From Promethearchaeia archaeon (GTDB lineage Archaea > Asgardarchaeota > Lokiarchaeia > Sigyniarchaeales > SOKP01): a DNA stretch of 10,617 nucleotides. The stretch is taken from assembly GCA_046497275.1 (NCBI GenBank), contig JAWOFX010000168.1, forward strand, positions 1 through 10,617. Direction: 5' to 3'. Positions 1 through 10,389 of this stretch are shown one piece after another (position 1 is the first letter of the stretch; every line of letters begins with the position of its first letter). The notes under the pieces were generated by a model. The model was not told the origin of the DNA and searched no databases. It saw only the letters and a program-made list of their open reading frames with translations. Both the position numbers and the translations under genes were made by a program.

Positions 1-585
<585 letters not shown>

Positions 586-890: not shown

Positions 891-2093
891 ATGACTACGA
901 ATGACCAAAAATTTGATGTTGTTATTTCGGGAGCGGGACCCTCAGGTTCAAAATGCGCAGAAATCTTAGCTAAAAGTGGTTTCAAAGTTGCTCTAATTGA
1001 AAAAGACACAACCTGGAGAAAACCATGTGGTGGAGGTGTTAGTTCTAGGATTTTTAAATATTTCCCACAGCTTCGAAGGCTTAATCCCCATAGAATCAAA
1101 AGTATTGGAATGTATTCTGCGGATTATGAGAATCTTCACTTTTCATGGGAAAGTATGAAGGATGATTCCATAGTTATCGATAGATTAGAATTAGACAATT
1201 TCATAAGAAATGTTGCAGTAGATGCGGGAGCACAATTATTCGACGATCATACCTCCTATGATTTTTTAATCAAACAAGGAAAAAGAGTTGGAATAAAAAC
1301 TAAAACCCAAGAGAAAATAGAAGAATTTTATGGGAAAATATTAATAATTGCAGATGGCATGAGTTCTAAATTAGCTGTTAAATCGGGATTGAGAAAAAAA
1401 TGGGAAATAGATGAATTAGGATTAGCAAAATGTGCTATAATGGAAGGTGAAACATCTTTAGACACACAATGTATCCATGTATTTTTCAGACCATATAAAG
1501 GATATGGATGGATTTTTCCATTAAGTGAGAGAAAATTTAATATTGGATGCGGCACATTTGAAGAGGCCAATCGAAAGTATAATCTTAATACGATATATGA
1601 AGAATTTATTCGAGATCCCCATATAAAACATCTTTTACCTGAGAAAACATATAAACAGATATGGTCTGCTTCGTTTCCCCTCCCCGCAAAAGGAGTTAAA
1701 AAAAATAGTTTATTTGGGGAGAATATAATGTTAATTGGGGATACAGCTGGATTTGTTTCCCCTATAAGTGGTGAGGGGATTCATCCGAGCATTGTCTCTG
1801 GGAAGGTTGCTGCTGAAACTGCTATAGCAGCATTAGAAGAAGAAAATATATCCAAGAAGCAATTAAAGAAATACAAAACGAATTCAAATATAAGCAAGAT
1901 AATTCGAAATTTTCAACTGAAAAGATCGATGGTTGAATTCTTTTATGAGAATGATGGAGAGAATTTGTCAATCATGTTAAAATTAGCAAAACAAAATGAG
2001 AAATTTAGAGATATTGTTGTAAATATGTTTTTATTTAATGCGGCACCCTCTAAGGAGTTTTTTTCTAAGATAAAAGATTTTAAGCTTAATTAG
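891..2093 (+). CDS. Geranylgeranyl reductase family FAD-dependent oxidoreductase (digeranylgeranylglycerophospholipid reductase-like)
   Basis: N-terminal dinucleotide-binding motif DVVISGAGPSG...VALIEK, the GGR motifs KPCGGG and PYKGYGWIFP (PxxYxWxFP-like), and C-terminal IGDTAGFVSPISGEGI; 400 aa. Confidence 0.92.
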   Translation: MTTNDQKFDVVISGAGPSGSKCAEILAKSGFKVALIEKDTTWRKPCGGGVSSRIFKYFPQLRRLNPHRIKSIGMYSADYENLHFSWESMKDDSIVIDRLELDNFIRNVAVDAGAQLFDDHTSYDFLIKQGKRVGIKTKTQEKIEEFYGKILIIADGMSSKLAVKSGLRKKWEIDELGLAKCAIMEGETSLDTQCIHVFFRPYKGYGWIFPLSERKFNIGCGTFEEANRKYNLNTIYEEFIRDPHIKHLLPEKTYKQIWSASFPLPAKGVKKNSLFGENIMLIGDTAGFVSPISGEGIHPSIVSGKVAAETAIAALEEENISKKQLKKYKTNSNISKIIRNFQLKRSMVEFFYENDGENLSIMLKLAKQNEKFRDIVVNMFLFNAAPSKEFFSKIKDFKLN

Positions 2094-2173: not shown

Positions 2174-3214
2174 TTATTCTAATAATTTTTTACCCTCTTC
2201 AATCCACTTTTTTATAGTATTTTGTGAAGCCCCGTCTATTTTTTTCGCTAATTCTCCGGGATCCTTATCAATTAACTCATTGACAGAATCAATTCCTACT
2301 TCTCTAAATTTTTCTTCTGTTTTTGGCCCCAAACGGTTTAATTTGGTAAGTTTAATGGGTTTTATTTGAGATTTTTCTGCAATCTTTACTTCAGGTGTCT
2401 CTTCTTTTTGAGTAACTATTGATTTCTCGCTAATTTTTTCTAAAATTTCAATAGCATCTACAGATTTCATATCTTTATCAGTATATATCCGTAATTTAAA
2501 CCCATCCAATTCGAGGATTTTCCTAGAAAAAGATGTAATCGGTTCCCACTCTAATTCTGATATTTCCTTCCCAAAGATTTTTGATTTTTTCTCGACAGCT
2601 CCATACAATTCAGAATTTCCAATTAGAACGTGTCGTCTTTTATAATTTGGAGGATGCTCATTATCTAAGATTTTCTCTAATGTTTTTTTATTTTCTTTTT
2701 TGATAGGTTTATTAGGTTTAACATTTAATTGAGGAGATCGTTTATAATTTGGTATTTGAGAAAAACTCTGAGAAGGATTTGCAACATGAGAGTTTTTAGA
2801 TATTTGTGGACTGTATGATCTAAATTCTCTTTTAGAAGGAATTTCTGGTAATTCTCTTTTTTCTAACATTTCCTCATCAAATCTAAAATTTTGGATAAAT
2901 TCTTTAAGTTCATCTCCCTCGTCTATGGAAACTATTTTACAACGATGAAAATGGGCTTCATTTATTAATTCTTTTTGTAACGATGTGGCGACTCGTGAAG
3001 CGATAAACTTTTTTCGTACAGAGGATTCAATGCCTTTCCAAATATAAATTCTCCTTATATCTTCTTTTACAATTATTATCACTTCATCTGATTTTAGTAC
3101 AGTGCTTCCATTGTCCTTAGAAAAGTCCTTTTCGGTAATATTTAGTCTAATTCTTTCCCCAGTATTTTTAAGTTTAAAAACCATAAAATTAGAATAAGCA
3201 CTAACCATTTGCAT
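2174..3214 (-). CDS. Asgard-type single-gelsolin-domain protein with a middle globular domain and a C-terminal helix-hairpin-helix (HHH_5/DUF4332-like) domain
   Basis: aa ~11-112 match the gelsolin repeat pattern (VIIIVKED-RRIYIWKG-SS-RKKFIA...IVSIDEGDE-KEF). aa ~113-175 form a S/P/Q/N/K-rich linker. aa ~177-260 are globular (PPNYKRRHVLIGN-ELY...LRIY). aa ~288-346 (LTKLNRLGPKTEEKFREVGIDSVNEL...IKKWIEEGKKLL) resemble the RadA/Rad51 N-terminal HhH module. The start could be M1, M3 or M11. Confidence 0.8.
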   Translation of the reverse strand: MQMVSAYSNFMVFKLKNTGERIRLNITEKDFSKDNGSTVLKSDEVIIIVKEDIRRIYIWKGIESSVRKKFIASRVATSLQKELINEAHFHRCKIVSIDEGDELKEFIQNFRFDEEMLEKRELPEIPSKREFRSYSPQISKNSHVANPSQSFSQIPNYKRSPQLNVKPNKPIKKENKKTLEKILDNEHPPNYKRRHVLIGNSELYGAVEKKSKIFGKEISELEWEPITSFSRKILELDGFKLRIYTDKDMKSVDAIEILEKISEKSIVTQKEETPEVKIAEKSQIKPIKLTKLNRLGPKTEEKFREVGIDSVNELIDKDPGELAKKIDGASQNTIKKWIEEGKKLLE

Positions 3215-3336
3215 TTTAATATTTACTCATCAATTTAAATTTTGATATCTATCTCATTGATAAATATGTTTGTAAATTAAAAGAGAGAAAAGATTTATTG
3301 TTTTATGAAAACGATTAAAAAACTTATGATAATTTT

Positions 3337-8908: not shown

Positions 8909-8979
8909 GCCAGAGTCGCTTAGCGGCCGAGCGTCAGCCTGCAGAGTTGATAACGAGGGTTCAATTCCCTCCTCTGGCT
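8909..8979 (+). tRNA. trnC: tRNA-Cys (GCA), intronless, CCA not encoded
   Basis: The cloverleaf folds as follows: acceptor GCCAGAG/CTCTGGC, D stem GCTT/GAGC, anticodon stem TCAGC/GTTGA with loop CT-GCA-GA (anticodon 8941-8943, G37), 4-nt variable loop, T stem GAGGG/CCCTC with loop TTCAATT, and the U73 discriminator typical of tRNA-Cys. Confidence 0.96.
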
Positions 8980-9042: not shown

Positions 9043-10389
9043 TTATTTTTGTTTTTCCCATTTCTTTAAATACATTACTTCTGAGAGAGTTGAGCCACGC
9101 TTAATTTCTTCTCGAATTCGATTCTCTTTTTCAAATACATCAATCGCTCGGTTCGCCATCTCTTGAGCTTTTGCTTTTGGAATTACTACAACTCCAGAAT
9201 CATCTCCTACAATCCAATCTCCTGGGTCCACTCGTTTGCTAGCACATTCAATACTTACATTAATCTCTCCAAGCCCTCGGGGTTCCCCTGCCGTTGGGGT
9301 AAAATGTCTCGCAAATAGTGGTAATTTAATTTTTCGAATATCATCTATATCTCTTACTGCGCCATCAATAACTACTCCTGCAATTCCTTTAACTTTACAA
9401 CTCCAAGAAGCTAATTCACCCCATACCGCATCTCTTCCTTCACAAGCATCGATTACTATCACATCTCCCTCATTTGCTTCTTCTATAGCCTCAACTGGTT
9501 TACTCCAATCTCCATTATAAGCTCTTACTGTGACAGCGGGACCTGCGAATTTTAATGGTTTCTCTTCTGTACCGATCCAAACTGGCTTTAACCCTTGCAT
9601 TTCCCCCATTCGGTGCATCGCATCAGAAATATTTGGACATGAAACTTTCATCAATGCATCTCGAATATGTTCTGCATCATATTTTTTATACAAGTCTGTT
9701 TCAACTGGTTTCGCAGACCTAATCGCCTCTTTTATTTTTTGAGCTGTTTCTTTTGGTTTCTCTGATTTATATAATGCTCCCCCAACGATTATAACATCAA
9801 CACCAATCTCTTTTGCCTTCGCTGCAGTTTCACTGTTTATTCCTCCAGCTATTGCCAACCAAGTAGTAGGTTTAAGTTTATTTTTAAGCTTACTAGCAAC
9901 TTCAAGAGTCTTTTCTCCACCATAAATTGTTTGTTGATCAATTCCCACATGAGAACATATCATCCCAGCACCCATTTCTTCTAATTCTAATGCCCTTTCC
10001 ACTAATCTATCCGGAGGAATATCAATAGTATCACATCCTAAAATAACCCCATATTTACGAGCAGCTTCAATTGCCTCAGTTACCGAAGCATCATCACTTC
10101 CTCCTAACATTAATACTACATCCGCACCAGATTTCGCTGCTATCTCAATTTCAATCGAACCACCATCCACAGTTTTCATATCTGCGACTATGGTATGCGT
10201 GGGAAACTTCTTATGGAGAACTCTTACCGAATTCATGCCTTCCGATTTAATAAGGGGTGTTCCTGCTTCTAACCACTCAACACCTCCTTCGACTGCCTCT
10301 TCAGCGATCTGCAAGGCACGATCTAAATTTATTAAATCAAGTGCAATCTGTAAAAAAGGTTCATTTTCTCTTTTTCTAATCAATTGCAA
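9043..10389 (-). CDS. Bifunctional 3-hexulose-6-phosphate synthase / RraA-family (HMG aldolase-like) fusion protein
   Basis: The N-terminal HPS (hxlA-like) domain has LQIALD, EAGTPLIKSEG, ADMKTVD, HVGIDQQ and AGGI. The C-terminal RraA-like domain has ISDAM, AGPAVTV, AVWGEL, VIDGAVRD and GDWIVGDDSGVVVIP. The true start is probably the TTG at 10383, which has AGGT 8 nt upstream, rather than 10389. Confidence 0.92.
   Translation of the reverse strand: MQLIRKRENEPFLQIALDLINLDRALQIAEEAVEGGVEWLEAGTPLIKSEGMNSVRVLHKKFPTHTIVADMKTVDGGSIEIEIAAKSGADVVLMLGGSDDASVTEAIEAARKYGVILGCDTIDIPPDRLVERALELEEMGAGMICSHVGIDQQTIYGGEKTLEVASKLKNKLKPTTWLAIAGGINSETAAKAKEIGVDVIIVGGALYKSEKPKETAQKIKEAIRSAKPVETDLYKKYDAEHIRDALMKVSCPNISDAMHRMGEMQGLKPVWIGTEEKPLKFAGPAVTVRAYNGDWSKPVEAIEEANEGDVIVIDACEGRDAVWGELASWSCKVKGIAGVVIDGAVRDIDDIRKIKLPLFARHFTPTAGEPRGLGEINVSIECASKRVDPGDWIVGDDSGVVVIPKAKAQEMANRAIDVFEKENRIREEIKRGSTLSEVMYLKKWEKQK

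Follow-up and report, generated by a model that had tools for sequence, protein, structure and literature searches.

The gene considered here lies on the minus strand of a 10,617-nucleotide stretch of DNA (the window; contig JAWOFX010000168.1 of assembly GCA_046497275.1) from a Promethearchaeia archaeon, and its product combines an N-terminal gelsolin domain (Gel), a second domain (X) and a C-terminal tandem helix-hairpin-helix module, (HhH)2 (Table 1). Judged from sequence and gene position, this protein is a GelX (1DGelX-type) protein and the positional ortholog of a widespread group of proteins with the layout Gel-X-SAP/HeH. In one sub-lineage of one genus, the SAP/HeH tail of this group has, on the phylogeny of the conserved part, been replaced once and recently by the HhH tail. 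HhH-tailed GelX is a new, narrowly distributed form of a known Asgard kind of protein, and this account of its anatomy and evolutionary history is considered highly probable. Of the known regulators of lokiactin, the Asgard gelsolins are the chief ones. The literature leaves the role of the GelX parts beyond Gel open, referring to them as an “unknown domain X”, a “coiled coil” or “disordered”.

An AlphaFold2 (AF2) model of the whole protein was built from 77 aligned relatives (mean predicted local distance difference test score, pLDDT, of 83). Gel reaches a pLDDT of 92-97 over residues 10-110, and Foldseek ranks Thor ProGel first (7c2f_B; E 8.9e-5, TM by target 0.78), with dozens of domains from gelsolin, villin and adseverin after it. 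The Gel family profile recovers the same structure among PDB sequences (7c2f_B, E 1.7e-7), along with Loki 2DGel (7whg, E 4.4e-7) and Thor 2DGel3 (E 1.1e-6), and a PDB search with the single sequence returns 2DGel3 at E 6.6e-5; Pfam Gelsolin (PF00626) stays sub-threshold on the single sequence (13.8 bits vs. a cut-off of 21). By AF2, Foldseek and the profile comparison with the PDB, residues 11-112, which a preliminary description of the window had called gelsolin-like (2879-3184), have the gelsolin fold (central mixed sheet, long helix) and resemble the solved Asgard gelsolins.

The second globular domain proposed in that description (2435-2686) corresponds to residues 177-260 and is modelled as helix 171-184 plus five strands, the pLDDT being 90-95 in the model of the full protein and 85 in a model of the domain by itself. 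Domain X carries invariant G, W, R and E residues, and across 59 sequences its columns average 53% identity. No convincing match to it was found in the PDB (Foldseek, best E 0.7; VIA-align against 48,161 chains, best Z 2.2), and the ESM Atlas returned only Asgard GelX clusters (TM 0.43-0.57). The model thus depicts domain X as a putative orphan alpha+beta fold specific to Asgard GelX, the absence of matches being no proof of a new fold. A degenerate second gelsolin repeat was tried as an identity for X and ruled out (hhalign probability 0.3%). The linkers are disordered in the model, with pLDDT below 50 at residues 123-156 and 270-281.

The tail, which had been described as a RadA-N/HHH_5-like module (2177-2353), maps to residues 288-346. 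Pfam HHH_5 (PF14520) is matched above its cut-off at residues 288-340 (30.6 bits vs. 27, E 4.8e-7), four helices are modelled at 297-345 (pLDDT 94-97), and a single-sequence PDB search finds the N-terminal domain of Pyrococcus Rad51/RadA (1pzn, E 0.005). A profile of 19 aligned HhH modules, in which 10 columns are invariant, matches the HhH regions of Pol IV, Pol beta, L32e, Rad51/RadA and Topo V; among the listed hits, both hairpins are aligned by RadA/Rad51 (1pzn positions 7-59, E 0.0069; 1t4g positions 6-61). The N-terminal (HhH)2 of RadA/Rad51 (HHH_5; 1pzn, 1t4g) likewise packs two HhH motifs, identically spaced, into about 55 residues, but the GelX module is without a recombinase core and its nearest relatives are tails of eL13e, not RadA. 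The boundaries proposed beforehand for all three segments fall within a few residues of the tool results.

Homologs of the protein numbered 222 by word-indexed search and 274 by exhaustive HMMER search, and those in the NCBI database are all labelled “hypothetical protein” and originate from metagenome-assembled genomes (MAGs) of Promethearchaeota, Lokiarchaeota and other Asgards. With a single gelsolin domain, then a non-gelsolin X, and with all named homologs from Asgard MAGs, the comparison with 1DGelX drawn in the preliminary description was the right one. Over 100 other Asgard proteins, about 310 residues in length (range about 300-380), share Gel and X at 40-51% identity and end in a SAP/HeH-type motif, present as one or two copies of a 35-residue unit (consensus WTVKQLKxFCxxNNIKVPSSYRKAxIxxLV) that Pfam reads as SAP, HeH/LEM, Ish1 or Rho_N. 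The motif is present in these orthologs and absent from the window's protein. The two forms therefore agree in orthologous Gel and X, locus, layout and the possession of a small helical tail of DNA-binding type, but differ in the tail itself, with one or two basic motifs of about 35 residues in the orthologs vs. a 61-residue, neutral-to-acidic (HhH)2 in the window's protein. A literature search for gelsolin combined with SAP in Asgards found nothing.

The searches brought up only eight HhH-tailed proteins, namely the window's, six full-length database homologs (56-88% identity) and that of the sister genome G002. Among the 40 relatives searched, the full-length HhH form occurs only in G002, which belongs to the same genus; the SAP form is found in G001, G004 and G006 of that genus and in other genera. 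The loci of both forms share flanking genes for a GGR-like FAD oxidoreductase, a 230-residue membrane protein, an HD-domain protein and a class IV aminotransferase. A careful maximum-likelihood tree was computed with IQ-TREE from the Gel and X columns only, with tails excluded (86 rows x 209 columns; supports as UFBoot/SH-aLRT). The eight HhH-tailed proteins form one clade (100/98), which joins the same-genus SAP proteins (99/90) and is nested with them in further SAP orthologs (94/83), with a paralogous group (termed LPKIP below) outside. Since the HhH clade is nested among SAP orthologs, the SAP tail is taken as ancestral and as having been replaced once within the genus. The gelsolin-X-HhH fusion, of which the preliminary description knew no described case, is therefore not a free-standing new architecture, but a recent tail swap in a large Gel-X-tail orthogroup.

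The surroundings of the gene differ among the sister genomes as well. The GGR-like gene (window 891-2093, plus strand; vs. L021:78-1256, minus strand) is convergent with the GelX gene in the window's own genome (G000) and G002 and co-directional in the SAP-tailed G004, a difference in orientation that amounts to a local inversion adjoining the swapped tail, and G001 and G006 have other genes at the 3' flank of the GelX gene. Such a rearranged 3' flank agrees with an exchange having taken place at that end of the gene.

The source of the tail is found in the same genome. The best own-genome match to residues 247-346 is the C-terminus of a 191-residue eL13e protein (53% identity), and the HhH module alone is 59-61% identical to this tail. 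The 191-residue protein (L003:1498-2073, minus strand, contig C172) is composed of an eL13e domain (PF01294, above cut-off), a Lys-rich linker and (HhH)2, and the eL13e-HhH form was found in the own genome and in 7 of 7 family-f1 genomes read (L044, L045, L046, L049, L050, L051 and L052). In a tree of 26 modules, seven GelX tails group with the same-genus eL13e tails, and this group is split (96/99) from the modules of eL13e and Lys-rich proteins of other genera; furthermore, the GelX and same-genus eL13e tails share the derived hairpins RLGPKTExKF and IDG(A/C)S. As the GelX tails group with the eL13e tails of their own genus, its source was the eL13e gene of the same genome, or else a duplicate of that gene. 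More remotely related modules stand ahead of eL32e (four copies, P0196) and of Topo VI-A/Spo11 (4-7 copies, P0219, P0220), and others are found in small Lys-rich proteins. No description of an HhH tail on eL13e was found in a literature search. Since the HhH tail derives from that of a ribosomal protein, “ribosome positioning”, mentioned in passing in the preliminary description, becomes a more concrete notion.

The fusion is not an artefact of assembly. The junction between HhH and X is bridged at 99-100% identity by two contigs from RNA libraries (X4 record 13, 2231-2975; X5 record 15, 2230-2613) and by a DNA contig from another sample (X3 record 11, 2236-3307), and a strain about 95% identical carries the same fusion (X11 record 2, 1937-2891). 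Because independent contigs bridge the junction, an assembly chimera is excluded. X4 and X5 are metatranscriptome libraries, each from a different study of salt lakes, and together cover 2230-2975; all four runs were read as contigs, and so come without expression level or transcript ends. Presence in these libraries is consistent with transcription, short of proof.

Table 1. Parts of the GelX-family gene and its product (positions refer to the window, residues to the protein).
Feature	Positions	Strand	Residues and properties
Whole gene, GelX-family protein	2174..3214	-	346 aa; Gel - linker - X - linker - (HhH)2; stop TAA 2174-2176
Gelsolin/cofilin-fold domain	2864..3190	-	res 9-117; W59 and G61 invariant in family; long helix 66-87
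Linker 1	2711..2863	-	res 118-168; Ser/Pro/Lys-rich, basic (net +6, isoelectric point (pI) 10.4); pLDDT 41-56
Domain X (modelled)	2429..2710	-	res 169-262; helix 171-184 + antiparallel 4-5-stranded sheet
Linker 2	2360..2428	-	res 263-285; short, no net charge; pLDDT 44-65
(HhH)2 module, RadA-N/HHH_5 type	2177..2359	-	res 286-346; hairpins RLGPKT and IDGAS

The open reading frame is a single frame from ATG to TAA, and a search of the opposite strand of 2174-3214 for open reading frames of at least 60 codons found none. The gene has a 100% match in contig C82 of the own genome, a MAG of 3.85 Mb that is 98.9% complete, and lies in a low-GC stretch (27-30%). The contig starts in the 3' end of a 23S rRNA, seen as an archaeal large-subunit rRNA 3' end at window 1-584 (plus strand; Rfam RF02540, model positions 2615-2987) that is cut at the contig start; this rRNA end accounts for the breaks that several sister contigs show immediately upstream of the gene's ortholog. 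Further along, the window holds a tRNA gene (8909-8979, plus strand) and a gene whose 448-residue product joins, by Pfam, an OMP-decarboxylase/HUMPS-family domain to an RraA-like aldolase/methyltransferase-like domain (9043-10389, minus strand).

Within its own genome, the window's gene is one of three GelX paralogs, the others being a Gel-X-X gene on contig C118 and a plain Gel-X gene on contig C180; a SAP-tailed GelX is absent from this genome, all three paralogs being without SAP. HeH-like motifs, sub-threshold in Pfam, persist in two other frames (C69:49929-50183, plus strand, and C156:864-956, minus strand; 1155 and 278 residues), so that SAP/HeH was lost from GelX and not from the genome. 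The C118 paralog (L002:1459-2787, plus strand) ends in a conserved “...LPKIPxxD” motif, and the LPKIP paralogs at large (Gel-X or Gel-X-X; P0121, P0130, P0133, P0135, P0139 and others) carry a C-terminal [RK]-x-L-P-K-I-P-x-[DE] after a basic tail, with a SAP-like motif as well in some members; the LPKIP ending is possibly a short linear interaction motif. The C180 paralog (L006:1435-2755, plus strand) has 283 residues and no tail and is directly followed by a Roadblock/LC7-domain gene, with an actin-family gene (C180:16325-17407) some 4 kb away.

Across the phylum, the X-domain profile detects genes with a single Gel plus X in 112 of 201 sampled genomes and in 41 of 41 from the window's family, with strong matches confined to the window's order (f1, f2). 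Distant Gel-X proteins of 270-321 residues from other families of the phylum also match the X profile; those inspected (L084-L092) have Pro/Lys-rich linkers and mostly finish in a conserved amphipathic helix (e.g. L.DL[IV]DFF) and a charged tail. Judged by distribution, these are probably the classical 1DGelX type, whereas the window's protein belongs to a paralog group that bears tails instead of ending in the amphipathic helix. The published Asgard 1DGelX/GelX proteins (Akil et al., 2020, PMC7444086; bioRxiv 10.1101/2025.11.30.690169; Nature 2026, PMC13716822) share with the window's protein one N-terminal Gel, a long disordered linker and a following domain without known relatives, in both cases termed X, and they too are confined to Asgard archaea. 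However, X is given in those papers as a “predicted coiled coil” or “disordered”, while the X of the window's protein models as a compact alpha+beta domain, and they make no mention of a SAP/HeH or HhH tail. According to a published idea, X binds to the side of the actin filament.

Given this anatomy, a tethering role can be proposed, and the nucleic-acid tether put forward in the preliminary description is indirectly supported. Oligomerisation through a SAM-like fold, also considered there, found no support, though no test was aimed at it. Gel should bind lokiactin, by homology with Thor 1DGelX, which binds actin (dissociation constant 7.7 uM) and has a severing activity that is Ca2+-independent (PMC7444086), and with B35_GelX of L. 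ossiferum, which is described among the gelsolins in a lokiactin co-immunoprecipitation (bioRxiv 10.1101/2025.11.30.690169). The own genome encodes a lokiactin that is 100% identical to that of sister genome G002. The two flexible linkers and domain X would hold Gel apart from the tail, the tail would grip a nucleic-acid polymer irrespective of its sequence (most likely the duplex DNA of the nucleoid), and the regulation or attachment of actin would thereby be localised to that polymer. The commonest shared activity of the SAP/HeH and HhH folds is binding of the nucleic-acid backbone. Because two unrelated folds of nucleic-acid type share one position in orthologs, the task of the tail would be non-specific nucleic-acid attachment, and the HhH module, which is fused mostly to nucleic-acid proteins, points the same way. 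Nucleic-acid binding is therefore proposed from the type of module, its fusion partners and the interchangeability of unrelated tails. Eukaryotic links between cytoskeleton and chromatin through SAP, LEM and HeH motifs likewise equip a structural or cytoskeletal protein with a small helical motif that binds DNA; nevertheless, they share no homology beyond the motif and the window's protein is without a membrane anchor, so that the parallel is one of analogy only. The explanation as a whole, comprising a GelX actin regulator, a tail swap derived from eL13e and a tail that tethers the protein to nucleic acid, is judged to have an even chance of being correct.

Several observations weigh against this tethering explanation. 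The HhH tails of GelX have net charges of -5 to +2 (pI 4.6-9.2) and most of them are acidic, whereas the SAP tails have a median net charge of +5 and a pI of 9.75; as the HhH tails are not basic, the two tails are not simple electrostatic equivalents. In the first hairpin, the canonical GhG is missing its initial Gly (RLGP vs. GLGP), and one related module is carried by a thioredoxin-like protein, a setting outside nucleic-acid biology. HhH, SAP and HeH folds mediate protein contacts in some systems, as in the NusA AR repeats and LEM-BAF. Since the donor is a ribosomal protein, the ligand could equally well be RNA or a ribosomal site instead of DNA. Apart from the tail, the domain X of this protein is provisionally equated with the published “domain X” from its distribution, and RNA libraries can contain DNA, so that the contigs recovered from them do not prove transcription. 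The neighbouring genes in the window are, by Pfam, unrelated housekeeping genes that give no functional hint for GelX; with these neighbours, a 122-nucleotide gap upstream and a convergent gene downstream, guilt by association is unavailable.

The acidity of most HhH tails, the ability of some HhH and HeH/LEM domains to bind proteins and the thioredoxin-like relative would also suit a reading in which both tails are protein-interaction or regulatory modules that contact a cytoskeletal or membrane partner, or fold back on Gel or X, instead of binding nucleic acid. GFP-1DGelX in human cells, located in the region of the nuclear envelope and endoplasmic reticulum and excluded from the nucleus (PMC7444086), adds to this side. 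Such a reading is nevertheless unlikely, since it has to accommodate two unrelated folds of nucleic-acid type at one position and a module fused mostly to nucleic-acid proteins, and the AF2 model displays no packing of the HhH tail on Gel or X (predicted template modelling score 0.42, with disordered linkers). The origin of the tail invites another possibility, namely that it has kept the binding site of the eL13e tail, an rRNA element or the ribosomal surface, and attaches the actin regulator to ribosomes and not to the chromosome. The same-genus eL13e tails as nearest relatives, the presence of eL13e-HhH in the own genome and the seven family-f1 genomes, the related modules before eL32e and the match of the HhH profile to the N-terminal region of H. 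marismortui L32e (E 0.003) all favour ribosome docking. It is, however, rather improbable when set against the ancestral SAP/HeH tail, which is not known from ribosomal proteins, the long Lys-rich linker that precedes the module in eL13e and is missing from GelX, and the occurrence of the same type of module on the DNA enzyme Topo VI-A; moreover, no paper on the ligand of the eL13e tail was found.

The swap may also have been a neutral accident of local rearrangement that left this lineage with a tail of no particular function. Sister genomes do vary in the 3' flank of the gene, and the two own-genome paralogs, like the distant phylum-wide Gel-X proteins inspected, manage without such a tail. 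However, the HhH tail is intact in 8 of 8 members of a clade in which Gel and X have diverged to about 57-62% identity, and it is as conserved as X, being 61-89% identical to the window's module within the clade with invariant core HhH positions, which makes a neutral origin of this kind very unlikely.

For the biology of Asgard archaea, three usable facts emerge: a domain X that is modelled as a compact, conserved orphan, a large group of orthologs with a tail of DNA-binding type, and the natural exchange of this tail for an unrelated one that belongs to the same functional class and came from a ribosomal protein. A natural domain swap within one genus provides a ready comparative setting for the two types of tail. 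If the tethering explanation is true, the swap from SAP to HhH would show that the tail needs only a hold on nucleic acid. At its widest, and as a speculation that is held to be rather unlikely, tail-bearing GelX proteins could be physical tethers of lokiactin to the nucleoid or, with this eL13e-derived tail, to the ribosome, and an archaeal forerunner of the coupling of cytoskeleton to chromatin or ribosomes. Should both tails indeed bind nucleic acid, they would offer the first concrete handle on actin-chromosome or actin-ribosome coupling in Asgard archaea.

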